A stretch of DNA of 64,000 nucleotides from Nitrosopumilus sp. GTDB taxonomy: Archaea > Thermoproteota > Nitrososphaeria > Nitrososphaerales > Nitrosopumilaceae. Positions 14,182 to 63,539 of this stretch are shown piece by piece (positions within the stretch are counted from its first letter, which is position 1; each line of letters opens with the position of its first letter). Below the pieces are notes generated by a model. That model was not told the DNA's origin. It searched no databases and saw only the letters and a list, made by a program, of their open reading frames with translations. Location of the stretch: contig OZ240211.1 of NCBI GenBank assembly GCA_965197525.1, forward strand, positions 192,001 through 256,000, given 5' to 3'. A program made the position numbers and the translations under genes.

Positions 14182-14898
14182 CAGTAGTCGGAAATTTGCC
14201 CCTTAGGCAGGTTCCACGACATCATACGGTTGACCTACAATCATACATGATTCCAATGCAGTCATTGCCGTAGCATATGCGACAAGTGCCAGAGTCACCC
14301 GATCATAACTCGAATCTGCACGGTACTGCTCCCTGCCCATGTGTTGTACATGAGCAGCGAGGTGTAAAACATATTGCCATAAACGATGCATTGCGGCTTG
14401 CTGTCCTCAGACGCACCTGCTCGACCTGCTTGTATCCTGTCTCTATCCTCAACCCCTGTACCGGCATGTATTCTTGGCAAGCCTTGCGGTACGTGTGAGC
14501 ATGTCCATACAGAGTTTGTCTGCATCGTCTGATTCCAGCGAGTTTATCATGTTACGAAACCACTTGGGCGACGGCATCTTCTTTTCGGCGTGCTTGAGTA
14601 GCCGGATTGCCTCCTCGGAGGATGTTGGATTCAGACATCTTCATCAGTATGGCTGCAAACTCGCTCACTCCATATTGGGCATTCTTCCTCGTAGAGAATC
14701 CCATAGATACGGATTCTAGTATTCCTGACAGGTATCAAGTATCCTTTCTCCGATCTTATTACGGTGTACCTGCCCACCTTTTTGCGTTAACACTAAGGTG
14801 GATAAGGGCATCGTGGATAATAGATTCGTATGTTCAAAAATGTTAACATAATTGAGAACGTCTGTTGGCTAGCTTAGGGGGTACATTTCCGACTACTG
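14182..14898 (-). mobile_element. Internally deleted ISH3-family IS remnant (717 bp)
   Basis: 21-bp TIRs cagtagtcggaaatttgcccc / ggggtacatttccgactactg, resembling the TIR of the intact ISH3 at 41289. Minus-strand fragments STRKNAQYGVSEF, MPSPKWFRNMINSLESDDADKLC, RIETGYKQVEQVRLRTASRN and FYTSLLMYNTW align by eye to the intact transposase. Confidence 0.85.
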
Positions 14899-15568
14899 AA
14901 AACTAACAAACTGTTATCTATCAAAGAGAACACAATACATGCAAAAGCTGGTTTTCACAGAAATGACCGTAGAAAAAAAGGTCAATTCTGGAAGGTAAAA
15001 CAGCAAAGAATGGCCAATAGAACAAAACAATACATACACAAAATATCAAAAGATATTGTGGATAATGCCGTTAGTAAAAAGGCTGTAATTGTGTTAGAAA
15101 ACTTGAAAGGAATAAGAAAATTGTACAAGAAAGGAAATGGTCAAGGCAACAAATACAGACGTAGATTGAATGGCTGGCAATTCTACGAGTTACAACGCCA
15201 AATAGAATACAAAGCCCAATGGGCCGGGCTCCCACCAGTAAGATATGTAGACCCAAAAAACACGAGCACGCAATGTCCAAGATGCGGAAAGGGACTCCAA
15301 GAGGACATGCAACACAGACGTAAAATGTCGTGTAATAATTGTGGATTATACATGGATAGAGACATTGTAGCTTCCATGAATATATCTCGCAAACTGTCCC
15401 CTAGGTTTAGGGATAGTAGAGTTGGCATAAGTGAAGCGCAGTCTGACGTTTTTGAGTCAGCGATGATGGAACCCTGTATACCGGTAATCCAGATAGTCGA
15501 TATGTCAAAGTCCAGTGTTCTGAGTGATTGTTATTGTTAATAATACCACTCGTGAATGCAACAGAACC
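14899..15568 (+). mobile_element. tnpB: 5'-truncated TIR-bounded tnpB element (copy 1)
   Basis: tnpB sequence (KTNKLLSIKENTIH...) starts immediately after the ISH3 TIR and the reading frame runs to 15540. Right end is tgcaacagaacc (reverse complement GGTTCTGTTGCA). Left end is missing. Confidence 0.85.
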
Positions 15569-15612
15569 GCCTAATCCAAGAGCTTAAATATATTCAGAGA
15601 ATGTTGTTTTTT

Positions 15613-18770: not shown

Positions 18771-20102
18771 GGTTCTGTTGGGCTAACGGGTGTTGACTGC
18801 TGAGGATCATGTCAGATTCCACAACCATCAACAACACATTGACTACTCGACTTTGACATATCGACTATTCGGATTACCGGTCTGCAGGGTTCCGCCATCG
18901 CCGGTTCAAAAACACCGGACTGCGCTTCATGTATGCCATCTCTACTATCTCTAAACCTAGGAGACAGTTTGCGTGATATGTTCATGGCAGCGATGATATC
19001 CCTGTCCATAAACAAACCGCAATTATTACACGATGATTTACGATGTTGTTGCATGTCCTCTTGGAGTCTCTTTCCGCATTGCGGACACTGCGTGCTCGTG
19101 TTTTTTGGGTCTACTGTTTTTACAGGTAGCCCGACCCATTGGGCTTTGTATTCTATTTGTCTTTGTAGTTCAAAGAATTGCCATCCGTTCAATCTACGTC
19201 TGTATTTGTCGCCTTGACCGTTTCCTTTTCCGTACAGTTTTCTAATTCCCTTTAGATTTTCTAGAACAATGACAGCCTTTTTCTTGACTGCATTGTCTAC
19301 TATGTTTTTTGAGATTCTGTGTATGTACTGTTTTGTTCTGTTTGACATTCTTCTCTGTTTTTCTTTGTAGAATTGACCTTTCTTTCTTTTGTCGTTTCTA
19401 CGGAAACTGGATCTGGCATGTATTGTGTTCTCTTTGATTGAGAGTAACTTGTTGGTTTTGTAGAATGTTACCTCTTCTTCATTTCCGCATGTGACGTTTC
19501 TAAGGTTTCTGTCTACTCCTACTGTCTTGGCGCACTCTATCTCCTGTACTTTTTTTGAAATACAAAGACTGATGTTGAGAGCAGTCAATGAAAACGAGCG
19601 CACTGCCAAGGCGGGATCCGACAGTATTTTTTGAGTATGTTCGTTGAGTAGGATGTTAATTGGATTTCTTGGCTTGTATGGAATTGTGAGTAAGGCGCCG
19701 TTGTGTTTTATACGGTAACAATTAGTGATAAACGGATTTTTGATAATTGGATCTTTTACTTTGAGGCCACGTTTGACTGACTGATCTCTGTTTGCCAGGA
19801 TGCCAGCAGCTCGTGATATTGCATTGAGTTTGTATGAAGATAGGATGTCGTAGTGACGTAATTCGTGATAGCATAACATAGACAACCGTTTCATGTTGTG
19901 GGTATCTTCCTTTAGCCCTATCTTGATACAACGGTTAACCATGTCTGTGAACGTGATCATCATGTCCATTAGGTCAGAGTTTGGTGTATGTTTTTGTGCT
20001 ATTGACTTTATTGCTCTCAACAAGTATTATACGGTTTAAGGCTATCTATATTTAGTGTTATGAGTATAATTTCTGATCAACACCCGTTAACCCAACAGAA
20101 CC
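18771..20102 (-). mobile_element. TIR-bounded tnpB-only element (copy 2, 1332 bp)
   Basis: 26-bp TIRs ggttctgttgggctaacgggtgttga / tcaacacccgttaacccaacagaacc (1 mismatch). 8-bp TSD atgtggaa / atatggaa (1 mismatch). Confidence 0.92.
18812..20023 (-). CDS. tnpB: TnpB-like RNA-guided RuvC nuclease
   Basis: RuvC-I GVDRN, RuvC-II VLENL, Zn finger CPQCG...CNNCG, RuvC-III DRDIIAAMNI. Confidence 0.92.
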   Translation of the reverse strand: MLRAIKSIAQKHTPNSDLMDMMITFTDMVNRCIKIGLKEDTHNMKRLSMLCYHELRHYDILSSYKLNAISRAAGILANRDQSVKRGLKVKDPIIKNPFITNCYRIKHNGALLTIPYKPRNPINILLNEHTQKILSDPALAVRSFSLTALNISLCISKKVQEIECAKTVGVDRNLRNVTCGNEEEVTFYKTNKLLSIKENTIHARSSFRRNDKRKKGQFYKEKQRRMSNRTKQYIHRISKNIVDNAVKKKAVIVLENLKGIRKLYGKGNGQGDKYRRRLNGWQFFELQRQIEYKAQWVGLPVKTVDPKNTSTQCPQCGKRLQEDMQQHRKSSCNNCGLFMDRDIIAAMNISRKLSPRFRDSRDGIHEAQSGVFEPAMAEPCRPVIRIVDMSKSSSQCVVDGCGI

Positions 20103-34215: not shown

Positions 34216-35521
34216 GGTTCTGTGAAATTATAGAGACCTTACTTATGAGGATAGGCGTACATAAATGCCCCAAAATCATAGAATATTTGTTGAAGGCAAT
34301 AAAGTCAATAGCACAAAAATATACGCCAAACTCTGACCTAATGGATATGATGGCCACATTCACGGACATGGTTAACCGTTGCATCAAGATAGGGTTAAAA
34401 GAAGACACACACAATATGAAAAGGCTATCATGTCTATGCTATCAGGAATTGAGAGACTATGACATTTTGTCGTCATACAAACTAAATGCAATATCAAGAG
34501 CTGCTGGCATATTGGCAAACAGAAGACAGTCAATAAAACGTGGTGTCAAGGTTAGATACCCAAAGGTAACAAAGCCGTTTATCACTAATTGTTACGGTAT
34601 AAAACACAATGGTGCACTACTTACAATCCCATACAAGAGTAGAAATCCAATCAACATCTTGTTAAACCCGCATACCCAAAAAATCCTGTCAAATCCTGCC
34701 TTGACAGTACGCTCGTTTTCATTGACTGCCTTTAACATCAGTCTTTGTGTTTCCAAGGAGACTGAACAGATAGAATGTACCAAGGCAGTAGGAATCGATA
34801 GAAATTTGAGGAATGTTACATGTGGCAATGAGGAGCAAGTAACATTTTACAAGACAAACAAAATACTATCCATAAAAGAGAACACCATGCACGCCAGAGC
34901 CGGATTCCACAGAAATGATCGCAGAAAGAAAGGTCAATTCTGGAAGGTAAGACAGCAAAGAATGACCAATAGAACAAAACAATACATACACAGAATATCA
35001 AAAGATATTGTGGATAATGCAGTCAAAGAAAAGGCTGTAATCGTTCTAGAAAACCTAAAAGGAATTAGAAAACTCTACAAAAAAGGAAATGGTCAAGGCA
35101 ACAAATACAGGCGCAGATTAAACGGATGGCAATTCTACGAGTTGCAACGCCAAATAGAATACAAAGCCCAATGGGTAGGACTCCCACCAGTCGAATATGT
35201 AGACCCAAAAAACACGAGCACGCAGTGTCCAAGATGCGGAAAGAAACTCCAAGAGGACATGCAACACAGTCGTAAAATGTCGTGTAATAATTGCGGATTG
35301 TACATGGACAGAGACATTGTAGCTGCCATGAACATATCACGCAAACTGTCCCCTAGGTTTAGGGATAGTGGAGATAACATAGGTGAAGCGCAGTCCGGTG
35401 TTTTTGAACCGGCGATGATGGAACCCTGCATACCGGTAATCCAGATAGTCGATATGTCAAAGTCGAGTGATAGGAGGATATGACTTGTTAAATCAACAGG
35501 TACCTATAACTTCACAGAACC
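34216..35521 (+). mobile_element. TIR-bounded tnpB-only element (copy 3, 1306 bp)
   Basis: 24-bp TIRs ggttctgtgaaattatagagacct / aggtacctataacttcacagaacc (3 mismatches). Perfect 8-bp TSD cgttgcta (34208-34215 / 35522-35529). Confidence 0.94.
34287..35483 (+). CDS. tnpB: TnpB-like RNA-guided RuvC nuclease
   Basis: GIDRN, VLENL, CPRCG/CNNCG, DRDIVAAMNI. TTG start at 34287/34290 inferred from alignment with the other copies. Confidence 0.92.
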   Translation: MLKAIKSIAQKYTPNSDLMDMMATFTDMVNRCIKIGLKEDTHNMKRLSCLCYQELRDYDILSSYKLNAISRAAGILANRRQSIKRGVKVRYPKVTKPFITNCYGIKHNGALLTIPYKSRNPINILLNPHTQKILSNPALTVRSFSLTAFNISLCVSKETEQIECTKAVGIDRNLRNVTCGNEEQVTFYKTNKILSIKENTMHARAGFHRNDRRKKGQFWKVRQQRMTNRTKQYIHRISKDIVDNAVKEKAVIVLENLKGIRKLYKKGNGQGNKYRRRLNGWQFYELQRQIEYKAQWVGLPPVEYVDPKNTSTQCPRCGKKLQEDMQHSRKMSCNNCGLYMDRDIVAAMNISRKLSPRFRDSGDNIGEAQSGVFEPAMMEPCIPVIQIVDMSKSSDRRI

Positions 35522-38214: not shown

Positions 38215-38291
38215 GCCGAGGTAGCTCAGCCTGGGAGAGCACTCGGCTGAAGACCGGGCTGTCGCAAGTTCAAATCATGCCCTCGGCACCA
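38215..38291 (+). tRNA. trnF: tRNA-Phe(GAA), CCA encoded
   Basis: Acceptor GCCGAGG/CCTCGGC, D-arm GCTC/GAGC, anticodon arm CTCGG-CTGAAGA-CCGGG, TTCAAAT loop. Confidence 0.95.
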
Positions 38292-41288: not shown

Positions 41289-42643
41289 CAGAAGTTGAAA
41301 ATGTACCCCTATCGCACACACTGCAAATAATATTCTAATTCTTTGTCTGTTGATTTTATGATCTTCTTGACCAATACAATGAGCAACACTAGGAATACAC
41401 TAGCTGTCATATTTGTTTTGACATGCTGCCCAAACTTGATCTTAAACACCCTGTTTATTTTTCGTACTGTCGTATACCACAGGTTGCACATAGTCATAGA
41501 GAGAAAGAACATAAAGACTCTGATCGCATGATTTCGACTACCTGTGCGTGCACGCATCTGCTCAACTGATTTGAAGTTGTTCTCTATGCGCCAGCGCTTT
41601 TTGTATTCTTTAGGAACGTCTTTCATGGTGCGTTTTATGCGCCGGCGTTCTACATTTGTGGCATACGTCAGATACTCCCATCCTTTTTTGCCCCTCTTTT
41701 CCTTGAGGCGTTTTTTTATCACCAGCCAAAACCTGAATGTTGTTCCGTAGCCGGATCTCATCTCGTATCTTGATACCGCCTTTCTTTTGCCGCAACGAAA
41801 CTCCGAGACGGCCTTTTTGATTCCCGGCGTCTTGCTTGTTGCCATCAGGAATCTCTCGCCGCGTTTGTCCAGAAAGCGCATCACCTCTACATTGCTAAAC
41901 TCACGGTCCATGAGAATTGTCGACTTTTTTTTAAACCCTAGTTTCTGTGATTCCAAGAGCAATTTACGCACGAATTCGGTCTTGGTCATGTCCCTTGTGA
42001 GGTGTACTACTGCTATCGTAGGCAACCGCTCTTCGGTGACTAGCTGCATGGTGGCGTACGTCTCAAACTGAGACGTTCCGCCCTTGGGCTTGCCACCGAT
42101 TACAAAGTTGTCATTGTGCCTGTCTGTGCCTGTGAATGGGATCAAGTGCTTGTCTATGGCATATATGTGACCTGTCTTCTTCTCCTCAAGACCGAATCCA
42201 TTCTTGATCGTACTCTTTAACATGCGCATACACAAGGCATTCATCTTGTCAGAATCTATTGCACCTATCATACTCAATAACCACTGGGATGTTGGGATAC
42301 TGGCGTTCTTGTCATCTCTTGATGTGATGGCAAGCTCTGCTACGGCCCTGTTGGCAGTAGCCCCATTCTTGCACATGTATAGCAGAACCAAGACGACATC
42401 CTCAAGACTGTACATGGCGTTATGCCTTGTTGACAGTGGTATCTTTGCACAATTTAGTGCGTCATACAAGACCATGAATTCTTTTTTTGCAATATTATCT
42501 TGGAAATTCAATTCATTTTTCTGATTTGCCATGTTAACTGATCAAATTTTGATCTTTTAGCCCCATATATCAAAAAACTATGTGTGTTAGCTTGTAAAAT
42601 TATGCGTAAAAAACGTGTGTAGAGGGTACATTTTCAACTTCTG
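41289..42643 (-). mobile_element. Intact ISH3-family insertion sequence
   Basis: Perfect 20-bp TIR cagaagttgaaaatgtaccc; 4-bp TSD atgt (41285-41288 / 42644-42647). Confidence 0.9.
41309..42532 (-). CDS. ISH3-family DDE transposase
   Basis: YAIDKH, ILMDREF, YKKRWRIENNFK (IS4-like YREK motif). Confidence 0.88.
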   Translation of the reverse strand: MANQKNELNFQDNIAKKEFMVLYDALNCAKIPLSTRHNAMYSLEDVVLVLLYMCKNGATANRAVAELAITSRDDKNASIPTSQWLLSMIGAIDSDKMNALCMRMLKSTIKNGFGLEEKKTGHIYAIDKHLIPFTGTDRHNDNFVIGGKPKGGTSQFETYATMQLVTEERLPTIAVVHLTRDMTKTEFVRKLLLESQKLGFKKKSTILMDREFSNVEVMRFLDKRGERFLMATSKTPGIKKAVSEFRCGKRKAVSRYEMRSGYGTTFRFWLVIKKRLKEKRGKKGWEYLTYATNVERRRIKRTMKDVPKEYKKRWRIENNFKSVEQMRARTGSRNHAIRVFMFFLSMTMCNLWYTTVRKINRVFKIKFGQHVKTNMTASVFLVLLIVLVKKIIKSTDKELEYYLQCVR

Positions 42644-56638: not shown

Positions 56639-58010
56639 GGTTCTGTCGAGTTAACGGGTGTTGACTGATGAGGATTCTATCAGCATCAAAACTCATATAC
56701 CTATTTCAACAGTGTTCATTAGGTAACACATTAACTACTTGACTTTGACATATCGACTATCTGGATTACCGGTCTGCAGGGTTCCATCATCGCTGACTCA
56801 AAAACGTTAGACTGCGCTTCACTTATGCCAACTCTACTATCCCTAAACCTAGGGGACAGTTTGCGTGATATGTTCATGGCAGCTATAATGTCTCTGTCCA
56901 TGAATAATCCGCAATTATTACACGACATTTTACGACTGTGTTGCATGTCCTCTTGGAGTTTCTTTCCGCATTTTGGACATTGTGTGCTCGTGCGTTTTGG
57001 ATCTACAAATTCGACGGGTAGCCCGACCCATTGGGCTTTGTATTCTATTTGGCGTTGTAGCTCGTAGAATTGCCAGCCGTTCAATCTGCGTCTGTACTTG
57101 TTGCCTTGACCATTTCCCTTTTGGTATAATTTTCTTATTCCTTTCAGGTTCTCCAAAACAATTATGGCTTTTTCCTTGACGGCATTATCTACTATGTTTT
57201 TTGAGATTTTGTGTATGTATTGTTTTGTTCTGTCAGTCATTCTTCTTTGTCTTTGCTTCCAAAATTGACCTTTCTTTCTACGATCATTTCTATGGAATCC
57301 GGCTCTAGTATGTATTGTGTTCTCTTTGATTGATAACAACTTGTTTGTTTTGTAGAATGTTATCTTTTCTTCATTTCCGCATGTGACGTTACGTAGATTT
57401 CTATCGATTCCCACTGTCTTGGTACACTCTATCTCTTCTGTTTCTTTCGAAACACAAAGACTGATGTTGAGAGCAGTCAATGAAAACGAGCGTACTGTCA
57501 AGGCGGAGTTTGACAGGATTTTTTGAGTGTGTTGGTTCAACAAGATGTTGATAGGATTTCCACGTTTGTATGGTATTGTGAGTAGTGCACCATTGTGTTT
57601 TATGCCGTAGCAGTTTGTAATGAATGGATTTTTGATAATTGGGTCTTTTACTTTGACACCACGTTTGACTGACTGCTTTCTATTTGATAATACTCCGGCA
57701 GCTCTTGATATTGCATTGAGTTTGTATGAAGATAAAATATCATAGTCTCTCAATTCGTGATAGCATAGCATGGATAACCGCTTCATGTTGTGGGTATCTT
57801 CCTTTAGTCCTATTCTAATGCAATGGTTAACCATCTTTGTGAATGTAACCATCATATCCATTAGGTCGGAATTTGGTGTATGTTTTTGTGCTATTGACTT
57901 TATTGCTCTCAACGAATATCTTCGGTTTAAAGTTATTTATATCTTGTTCAGAGGGATCTTTCTACCATGGAATCAAAATTTATTTCAACACCCGTTAACT
58001 TGACAGAACC
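56639..58010 (-). mobile_element. TIR-bounded tnpB-only element (copy 4, 1372 bp)
   Basis: 26-bp TIRs ggttctgtcgagttaacgggtgttga / tcaacacccgttaacttgacagaacc (1 mismatch). Perfect TSD gataaact (56631-38 / 58011-18). Confidence 0.95.
56731..57912 (-). CDS. tnpB: TnpB-like RNA-guided RuvC nuclease
   Basis: GIDRN, VLENL, CPKCG/CNNCG, DRDIIAAMNI. Confidence 0.92.
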   Translation of the reverse strand: MRAIKSIAQKHTPNSDLMDMMVTFTKMVNHCIRIGLKEDTHNMKRLSMLCYHELRDYDILSSYKLNAISRAAGVLSNRKQSVKRGVKVKDPIIKNPFITNCYGIKHNGALLTIPYKRGNPINILLNQHTQKILSNSALTVRSFSLTALNISLCVSKETEEIECTKTVGIDRNLRNVTCGNEEKITFYKTNKLLSIKENTIHTRAGFHRNDRRKKGQFWKQRQRRMTDRTKQYIHKISKNIVDNAVKEKAIIVLENLKGIRKLYQKGNGQGNKYRRRLNGWQFYELQRQIEYKAQWVGLPVEFVDPKRTSTQCPKCGKKLQEDMQHSRKMSCNNCGLFMDRDIIAAMNISRKLSPRFRDSRVGISEAQSNVFESAMMEPCRPVIQIVDMSKSSS

Positions 58011-62251: not shown

Positions 62252-63539
62252 GGTTCTGTGAAGTTATCGGGGGTTATCTGTTAATCCCTAAATTGTATAA
62301 ACCTCTAAACCGTAAGATATTCGTTGAAAGCGATAAAGTCAATATCACAGAAATATACGCCAAACTCTGATCTAATGGATATGATGGCCATATTCACAAA
62401 GATGGTCAATCATTGCATCAAGACAGGATTGAAAGAAGACACTCACAATATGAAGAGGTTGTCCATATTATGTTATCATGAATTACGTAATTATAACATC
62501 CTGTCTTCATACAAACTAAATGCAATATCACGAGCTGCAGGCATGTTATCAAACAGAAAACAATCAATCAAACGAGGTGTCAGAATAAGAGACCCAATAG
62601 TCAAAAATCCCTTTATGACAAACTGTTACGGCATAAAACACAACGGTGCACTATTAACAATCCCATACAAGAAACATAACCCAATCAACATTTTACTCAA
62701 CGTTCACACCCAAAAAATCCTATCTGATCCCGCCTTGACGGTGCGCTCGTTTTCATTGACTGCCCTCAACATCAGTCTTTGTGTTTCAAAAACAGTACAA
62801 GAGATAGAGTGCACCAAGAAAGTGGGAATAGACAGAAACCTAAGAAATGTGACGTGTGGGAACAAGCAAGAGGTGACAGTCTACAAGACAAACAAACTGT
62901 TATCCATAAAGGAGAACACAATACACGCTAGGGCAGGATTCCACAGAAATGATCGCAGAAAGAAAGGTCAATTCTGGAAACAAAGACAGAGACGAATGAG
63001 CAATAGAACAAAGCAGTACATCCACAGAATCTCAAAGGATATAGTAGACAACGCAGTCAAAAACAAGACTGCAATCGTCATGGAAAACCTGAAAGGAATA
63101 AGAAAATTGTACCGAAAAGGAAACAGTCAAGGTAACAAGTACAGGCGTAGATTGAACGGGTGGCAATTCTACGAGTTACAACGCCAAATAGAATACAAAG
63201 CCCAATGGGTCGGGTTGCCTCCAGTCGAGACAGTAGACCCAAGAAACACGAGCACGCAGTGTCCGAAATGCGGAAAGAGACTCCAAGAGGACATGCAACA
63301 ACATCGTAAAATGTCGTGTAATAATTGCGGTTTGTTTATGGACAGGGACATCATCGCTGCCATGAACATATCACGCAAGCTGCCCCCTAGGTTTAGGGGT
63401 AGTAGAGATGACATAGATGAAGCGCAGTCCGGCACTTTTGAGCAGGCGATGACGGAACCCAGCACATCATTGGTAATCCGAATAGTCGATATGTCAAAGT
63501 CAAGTTATAGGGGTTAACCCTCGATAACTTCACAGAACC
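62252..63539 (+). mobile_element. TIR-bounded tnpB-only element (copy 5, 1288 bp)
   Basis: 25-bp TIRs ggttctgtgaagttatcgggggtta / taaccctcgataacttcacagaacc (1 mismatch). Perfect TSD ggatttag (62244-51 / 63540-47). Confidence 0.95.
62324..63517 (+). CDS. tnpB: TnpB-like RNA-guided RuvC nuclease
   Basis: GIDRN, VMENL, CPKCG/CNNCG, DRDIIAAMNI. Confidence 0.92.
   Translation: MKAIKSISQKYTPNSDLMDMMAIFTKMVNHCIKTGLKEDTHNMKRLSILCYHELRNYNILSSYKLNAISRAAGMLSNRKQSIKRGVRIRDPIVKNPFMTNCYGIKHNGALLTIPYKKHNPINILLNVHTQKILSDPALTVRSFSLTALNISLCVSKTVQEIECTKKVGIDRNLRNVTCGNKQEVTVYKTNKLLSIKENTIHARAGFHRNDRRKKGQFWKQRQRRMSNRTKQYIHRISKDIVDNAVKNKTAIVMENLKGIRKLYRKGNSQGNKYRRRLNGWQFYELQRQIEYKAQWVGLPPVETVDPRNTSTQCPKCGKRLQEDMQQHRKMSCNNCGLFMDRDIIAAMNISRKLPPRFRGSRDDIDEAQSGTFEQAMTEPSTSLVIRIVDMSKSSYRG

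Follow-up and report, generated by a model that had tools for sequence, protein, structure and literature searches.

The window, the whole stretch of 64,000 nucleotides that was analysed (G000:C1:192001-256000), lies in a host genome consisting of a single contig of 2.21 Mb with a G+C content of 39.6%. It contains five copies of tnpB (Pfam Cas12f1-like_TNB), each with a match to PF07282. Copies 2 to 5 are full elements, while copy 1 is a 3′ remnant of 668 bp, in which homology to the other copies begins at 14901 and the stop codon of the remaining reading frame (TAA, 15538-15540) falls within a variable hairpin termed stem D. The 3′ tail occurs about 50 times in the host genome, in 33 cases preceded by an open tnpB frame. 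The consensus of the 33 intact tnpB copies has the motifs GIDRN, LEN and DRD. The encoded protein, with the D, E and D motifs of RuvC and a zinc ribbon, matches Cas12f and TnpB structures, and judged from these residues it looks like an active nuclease. Since copy 1 is devoid of the 5′ half of tnpB, an RNA made from it could act only with TnpB from other copies. The coordinates of all features are given in Table 1.

Two copies of a 22-nt inverted repeat (TCAGTAGTCGGAAATTTGCCCC and its complement, at 14182-14203 and 14877-14898, matching at 20 of 22 positions), with about 670 bp between them, adjoin position 14901, where the 5′ half of copy 1 is lost. The unit bounded by this repeat pair is probably another small mobile element and the cause of the truncation. 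Elsewhere in the window, an open reading frame of 407 aa at 41309-42532 (-) encodes a DDE_Tnp_1 (IS4/IS5-type) transposase domain and represents a transposon family distinct from the tnpB elements and their IS6-like partner. The sole Rfam match in the window is a tRNA gene at 38215-38288 (+).

Table 1. Position of the tnpB elements in the window and of the predicted RNA features of copy 1.
Feature	Position	Strand	Details
Copy 1, 5′-truncated tnpB element	14901-15568	+	BLAST against the other copies; right end by invariant ACAGAACC
Copy 1, remnant tnpB ORF	15010-15540	+	176 aa; RuvC-II/III and zinc-ribbon part
Copy 1, predicted omegaRNA scaffold	15393-15568	+	176 nt, from stem A to right end
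Stem A	15393-15417	+	15393-15400 with 15410-15417; loop CUAGGUUUA at 15401-15409; covariation, RNAalifold
Pseudoknot, 5′ strand (GGUUU)	15404-15408	+	in the loop of stem A; pairs with 15564-15568
Helix P2, 5′ strand (UUGGCAUA)	15422-15429	+	long-range helix; pairs with 15501-15508
Hairpin B	15443-15460	+	stem 15443-47 / 15456-60, loop GUUUUUGA; inside the P2 multiloop
P3 and stem C	15467-15491	+	P3, 15467-70 with 15488-91, encloses stem C (15471-73 with 15483-85) and a variable loop
Helix P2, 3′ strand (UAUGUCAA)	15501-15508	+	overlaps the TCAAAG (15505-15510) of the first-pass annotation; compensatory changes at columns 139, 141, 144 and 145
Stem D	15510-15562	+	variable hairpin; GU 15510-11 with AC 15561-62; main stem 15515-15559
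Pseudoknot, 3′ strand (GAACC)	15564-15568	+	final 5 nt of both element and terminal inverted repeat
Putative guide (GCCTAATCCAAGAGCTTAAA)	15569-15588	+	flank directly 3′ of the right end; from right-end position and W-T-R 5′ of the duplication
Copy 2, full element	18771-20102	-	1332 bp; scaffold 18771-18968; hairpin B from 18918 downwards
Copy 3, full element	34216-35521	+	1306 bp; perfect 8-bp duplication CGTTGCTA; scaffold 35345-35521
Copy 4, full element	56639-58010	-	1372 bp; duplication AGTTTATC; scaffold 56639-56860
Copy 5, full element	62252-63539	+	1288 bp; duplication GGATTTAG; scaffold 63379-63539

Transposon ends and the W-T-R motif

The tnpB elements are bounded by terminal inverted repeats of about 24 bp (left end GGTTCTGTGAAGTTATCG...), and 24 of the 33 full copies are flanked by 8-bp target duplications that are perfect or have one mismatch. 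In all 24 of these clean insertions the motif W-T-R lies directly 5′ of the left-hand duplication, with T at position -2 in 24 of 24, and no mirror of the motif was found 3′ of the right-hand duplication.

The first 18 nt of the end are common to the tnpB elements and a 1970-bp element elsewhere in the host genome (L065; G000 746475-748444), which has an 8-bp duplication of its own and encodes a DDE_Tnp_IS240 (IS6-family) transposase (PF13610 at 1.2e-10). This IS6-like element has further genomic copies, two of which are closely related. W-T-R was absent beside the two intact-ended autonomous IS6-like copies that we examined. The defining features of the IS6 family are thus found in the tnpB elements, namely inverted ends starting with GG, 8-bp duplications and ends common with the DDE_Tnp_IS240 element. 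On these sequence features, the element is probably a non-autonomous IS6-family derivative that is moved in trans by the IS6-like DDE transposase. The inverted ends of about 24 bp and the 8-bp duplications rule out that the tnpB elements are of the IS200/IS605 (IS1341-type) or IS607 kind.

Four deletion derivatives of 208-497 bp (G000:C1 143852-144348, 803351-803738, 870887-871264 and 1385894-1386101) keep both inverted ends, a perfect 8-bp duplication and the guide-RNA end or a remnant of it. All four have TTA at the position of W-T-R; for one of them this holds only if the sequence is oriented by its RNA remnant. Such derivatives may supply extra guides to TnpB made elsewhere. Moreover, two relatives in other genera, L086 (G383:C55) and L091 (G347:C31), have an 8-bp (or nearly 8-bp) duplication after TTG or CTG, and hence the one-sided motif is not confined to the host genome.

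Covarying helices in the 3′ tail

To collect relatives of the tail, TnpB homologues with 43-91% identity were taken from 68 of the 401 sampled genomes of the same class, and their 3′ ends were read; nearly all finish in ACAGAACC or a close variant. When 200 sampled genomes from this family were searched with the DNA of the tail, no match appeared beyond the host genome. The protein search did yield relatives, including near-identical tails in one congener outside the 200-genome sample. Rfam 15 gave no credible match in 15200-15600, at gathering or at permissive thresholds, even at E<=10. The close set comprised alignments A2 (33 sequences) and A4, and the distant set alignment A3 (49 sequences). 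The two sets were tested apart, because a joint MAFFT alignment misplaced the strands of P3 and stem C around the insertion of hairpin B. Pairing was scored against 500 shuffles and against slid controls.

In the 33 sequences of the close set, 93.4% of the cells were paired versus 86.6% in shuffles and 30-40% in slid controls, and 17 pairs were changed on both sides (0/500 shuffles); sequences from within one genome are related copies, and the shuffle controls therefore overstate significance. The 49 distant relatives gave 94.8% paired versus 80.4% in shuffles, and both sides had changed in 16 pairs (0/500). An independent RNAalifold prediction likewise contains stem A, P2 and the base of stem D. 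Furthermore, G.U pairs are conserved in 47 of 49 sequences at one position and in 31 of 33 at another, which fits an RNA made from the sense strand.

Stem A is best described as an 8-bp helix (ACUGUCCC, loop CUAGGUUUA, GGGAUAGU), in which 96.6% of the cells are paired and seven of the eight pairs are changed on both sides in A2. In A3 the sequence of this stem is entirely different, yet the stem is kept. The register proposed for it by the first-pass annotation, cccta-ggtt-taggg, fits less well, with 91.5% paired and one pair broken in 8 of 33 sequences. The long-range helix P2, which closes a multiloop around P3 with stem C and, in this clade, hairpin B, has three pairs changed on both sides in A2 and four in A4 (1/500 shuffles in A4), and in A3 98% of its cells are paired and five of its seven pairs are changed. 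P3 and stem C are 90% paired in the close set, with two pairs changed on both sides; one pair of this region (89-128 in A2) occurs as CG in 21 sequences and as UA in the other 12. Stem C has changes on both sides in three of its four pairs in A3.

As the register of stem D differs from one subfamily to another, each of its 76 distinct sequences was folded separately rather than scored in alignment columns. A single closing hairpin formed in 84% of them (median z -2.4), in a scoring where some misplaced anchors gave shortened segments. The basal pairs of stem D are predicted with covariation by RNAalifold, and the inner portion of the terminal inverted repeat makes up its 3′ half.

Hairpin B had already been singled out in the first-pass annotation, on the basis of three compensatory pairs between copy 1 (ctgac/gtcag) and copies 2 and 3 (ccggt/accgg), with one mismatch each in copies 4 and 5. 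The five-copy alignment bears this out, and the hairpin holds in a larger set of 37 sequences (28 distinct genomic copies and nine close relatives from other genomes). There, 97.3% of the cells are paired versus 79.0% in shuffles and 17-48% in slid controls, and all five pairs are changed on both sides, with a covariation score of 0.707 versus 0.333 (0/500 shuffles). Hairpin B is missing, however, from the 49 distant relatives, in which all other helices are kept. It is a clade-specific insertion outside the conserved core.

The same annotation had argued that the tail is constrained as RNA rather than as protein, since the stop codon lies at a different place in each copy. Both the observation and the argument survive: the stop codons of the five copies lie 30, 36, 39, 48 and 57 nt past a common anchor, and the ratio of diversity at the third codon position to the mean of the first two, which is 2.5-6 over most of the reading frame, drops to 0.9-1.2 in the tail. 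This loss of third-position bias fits constraint on RNA and not on protein. In copies with a broken reading frame or a deletion, 94.3% of the helix positions are paired versus 98.3% in intact copies. That broken-frame copies, copy 1 among them, keep the fold could reflect recent decay or use in trans.

The right end and its predicted pairing with the loop of stem A

Across the approximately 50 genomic copies, a variable stem-loop of 28-85 nt is followed by the invariant ACAGAACC and then by unique flank. The scaffold extends from about 150 nt upstream of the stop codon to this terminus, and its length from stem A to the right end is 161-222 nt in the five copies of the window. Similarity between subfamilies falls off after GTCAAAGTC (at about 15511), while within subfamilies the sequence goes on. 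Because of this drop, the shared tail had at first been taken to end at about 15510-15516, which is too early: all of the approximately 50 copies go on to ACAGAACC, and the right end of copy 1 at 15568 lies 52 bases beyond the earlier boundary. With the true right end at ACAGAACC, a tnpB reading frame running beyond the element into the flank was rejected.

Second (T)CAGAACC motifs occur 9-14 nt past the right end in L036 (G428) and L042 (G173), and solo fragments ending in ACAGAACC are found on the upstream side of the element at G000 817000. Such motifs and fragments look as if left by earlier insertions at the same sites.

The loop of stem A, (U)AGGUU(U/C), is conserved although the surrounding stem changes completely, and the element ends in bases complementary to this loop. 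Scored as GGUUY with RAACC in the 49 relatives, this pairing is 99.2% paired and three of the five pairs are changed on both sides. Tested alone, it again has three pairs changed on both sides (1/500 shuffles) in six cells (0/500), counts that lean somewhat on the right ends of 17 relatives; for each of these the closest match to ACAGAACC at the distance expected was chosen manually, and only three of the ends were confirmed independently. Compensation by GGCU/AGCC is found in two lineages (L085 with L086, and L095 with L097), by AGUU/AACU in L057 and by GAUU/AGUC in L043. Only about four independent compensatory events support the pairing. In several relatives the complementarity between loop and right end reaches 7-8 bp (e.g. 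GGUUCUG with CAGAACC).

Independent confirmation came from the inverted repeat in L085, and in L086 from the repeat together with a perfect 8-bp duplication after TTG; the right end of L091 was confirmed to within 1 nt. A search for left ends retrieved none for L095, L097, L087, L079, L043 and L055, and the matches for L057 and L059 were weak, at 10 nt. The left and right ends differ at position 3 in L085 and in the subfamily of copy 1, and in both the loop follows the right end. That the loop tracks the right end and not the left is as predicted for an RNA pseudoknot. Covariation thus supports a pseudoknot in which GGUUU, in the loop of stem A, pairs with GAACC, the five bases that end the element.

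A candidate omegaRNA in an IS6-like transposon

An archaeal TnpB omegaRNA scaffold is most likely encoded by the terminal 160-220 nt at the 3′ end of each element, a stretch that overlaps the final 45 or so codons of tnpB. This reading draws on the covariation of five helices and a pseudoknot, on the loss of third-position bias and on a topology like that of the omegaRNA of ISDra2. The cryo-EM structure of the latter, from Deinococcus radiodurans, resolves 116 nt, in which a long-range stem 2 surrounds stem 3, stem 4 comes before the pseudoknot strand, and the pseudoknot itself joins positions -6 to -2 to the loop region of stem 1, the first of the four stems (PMC10097598). Stem A corresponds to stem 1, P2 to stem 2, P3 with stem C to stem 3, and stem D to stem 4. 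As in ISDra2, the RNA would overlap the 3′ end of tnpB, stop at the right end and take its guide from the flank, and the loop of the 5′ stem would pair with the bases just before the guide, as indicated here by covariation. In contrast to ISDra2, the pseudoknot lies at -5 to -1, the scaffold is 161-222 nt rather than the 116 nt resolved, hairpin B is an extra covarying element of this clade, and sequence similarity between the two RNAs is not detectable. The host element also differs, in having inverted-repeat ends and target duplications instead of IS200/IS605 ends, W-T-R as the candidate TAM, and an 8-bp duplication between that motif and the left end.

The first-pass annotation had likewise read the tail as an omegaRNA scaffold overlapping the 3′ end of tnpB and under selection as RNA. 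These parts of its proposal are retained, while its 3′ end, its register for the first hairpin and its pseudoknot partners are not. It had the scaffold end at about 15510-15516 and the loop of hairpin B (UUUUGA, 15450-55) pair with UCAAAG at 15505-10. The two motifs are indeed complementary, with five Watson-Crick pairs and one U.G, and nearly invariant in the clade, so that 97.7% of the cells are pairable. However, not a single pair is changed on both sides, and every measure equals that of the shuffles (500/500, A4). Moreover, changes at columns 144/145 in L037, L040 and L070 break this pairing, and the same changes are compensated in P2. We therefore rejected TCAAAG as a pseudoknot strand: 15505-08 belong to P2, and G15510 forms part of the basal pairing of stem D. 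With hairpin B missing from the 49 relatives that otherwise keep the scaffold, and with the element continuing to 15568, we regard that model as extremely unlikely.

Other explanations would not involve a guide RNA at all. The structured tail might be a cis-acting part of the tnpB mRNA that serves in stability, termination or translational control, as its overlap with the end of the reading frame and the stop codon within a hairpin might suggest. This is nevertheless very improbable, as the fold reproduces the topology of the ISDra2 omegaRNA element by element, the five bases that end the element are exactly those of its pseudoknot strand, the structure is kept in copies with broken frames or deletions at nearly the level of the intact ones, and a TAM-like motif is found where a guide starting at the right end would need one. 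The hairpins could also be single-stranded DNA structures for a transposase, comparable to the subterminal hairpins of IS200/IS605. It is in IS200/IS605 elements, whose ends fold as DNA hairpins, that tnpB classically resides, and stem D lies only about 6-10 nt from the element end. Yet inverted repeats of about 24 bp and 8-bp duplications are absent from IS200/IS605 and IS607, according to a 2026 review (PMC13565253), and conserved G.U pairs, a helix spanning 70 nt and a pseudoknot are foreign to such DNA ends. The structure is furthermore present on the sense strand only, and we assign the DNA-hairpin explanation a nearly negligible probability. By comparison, we are strongly inclined towards the combination of an omegaRNA scaffold, a pseudoknot between loop and right end, a guide from the flank and an IS6-like transposase acting in trans, which the sequence comparisons make highly probable.

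Under the omegaRNA reading, the scaffold RNA would be made and bound by TnpB, and the guide would be transcribed from the flank, beginning with the first base after ACAGAACC, such that its first 8 nt are the target duplication. W-T-R is the candidate TAM. TnpB loaded with this RNA would cut the uninserted site, where the motif stands directly 5′ of the eight bases, and would spare the occupied site, as only 8 nt match beside the motif there. The IS6-like DDE transposase would move the tnpB element in trans, and the bases of the terminal inverted repeat would serve both this transposase and the pseudoknot of the RNA.

The role of TnpB is usually explained as restoring the donor site after excision. 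Excision is not known for IS6-type transposition, and this rationale is therefore not directly applicable here. A bolder possibility is that the TnpB-omegaRNA module has been rebuilt around an IS6-type (copy-in, DDE) end, with recognition of the motif coupled to the sites of insertion or survival, and that TnpB acts as a target-site selector or drive. The coupling is suggested by the presence of W-T-R beside every insertion with a guide RNA that was examined and not beside the two autonomous IS6-like copies, but we consider the proposal speculative and rather improbable.

Associations of TnpB with DDE transposases have been described before. Altae-Tran et al. 2023 (PMC10691335) describe TnpB branches associated with DDE transposases (DDE-1 to DDE-6), and also solo TnpBs that lie within such ends. 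Like these branches, the elements studied here have tnpB within inverted terminal repeats and its 3′ end less than 250 bp from the transposon end; like the solo tnpBs, they have ends in common with elements that bear a transposase. The DDE partners named in the available parts of that paper and of the 2026 review (PMC13565253) are IS630, ISL2 and IS1031, and an IS6-family (DDE_Tnp_IS240) partner is not named in those parts, nor do the parts of Altae-Tran et al. describe omegaRNA structures. A literature search for TnpB with the IS6 family or with Thaumarchaeota returned nothing relevant. Fanzor structures reported for eukaryotic transposons with terminal inverted repeats have the 3′ duplication within the scaffold, and Fanzor1 has lost the pseudoknot (PMC13565253). 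The present elements resemble Fanzor omegaRNAs as described there in combining a nuclease in a DDE-type inverted-repeat transposon, target duplications and a repeat in the scaffold. They differ in that the pseudoknot is kept and uses the terminus of the repeat, and in that the position of W-T-R implies a duplication forming the first 8 nt of the guide.

For a probable TnpB guide RNA of archaea that is not modelled in Rfam, the analysis provides a structure backed by covariation, with its pseudoknot and exact 3′ boundary. The scaffold of 161-222 nt, the guide start after ACAGAACC and the candidate TAM W-T-R are what reconstitution of the nuclease would need, and hairpin B, being specific to one clade, marks a dispensable site for minimisation of the scaffold. 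For the biology of these transposons, the results suggest that an ISDra2-type fold survives the transfer of the module into an inverted-repeat transposon of the DDE type, where five bases would have to satisfy the transposon end and the RNA pseudoknot at once. The covariation of the loop with the right end, independent of the left end, can be viewed as a natural experiment on this dual constraint. If the target-selector proposal were true, TnpB would be a drive for a DDE transposon, and not a repair aid for an excising one.
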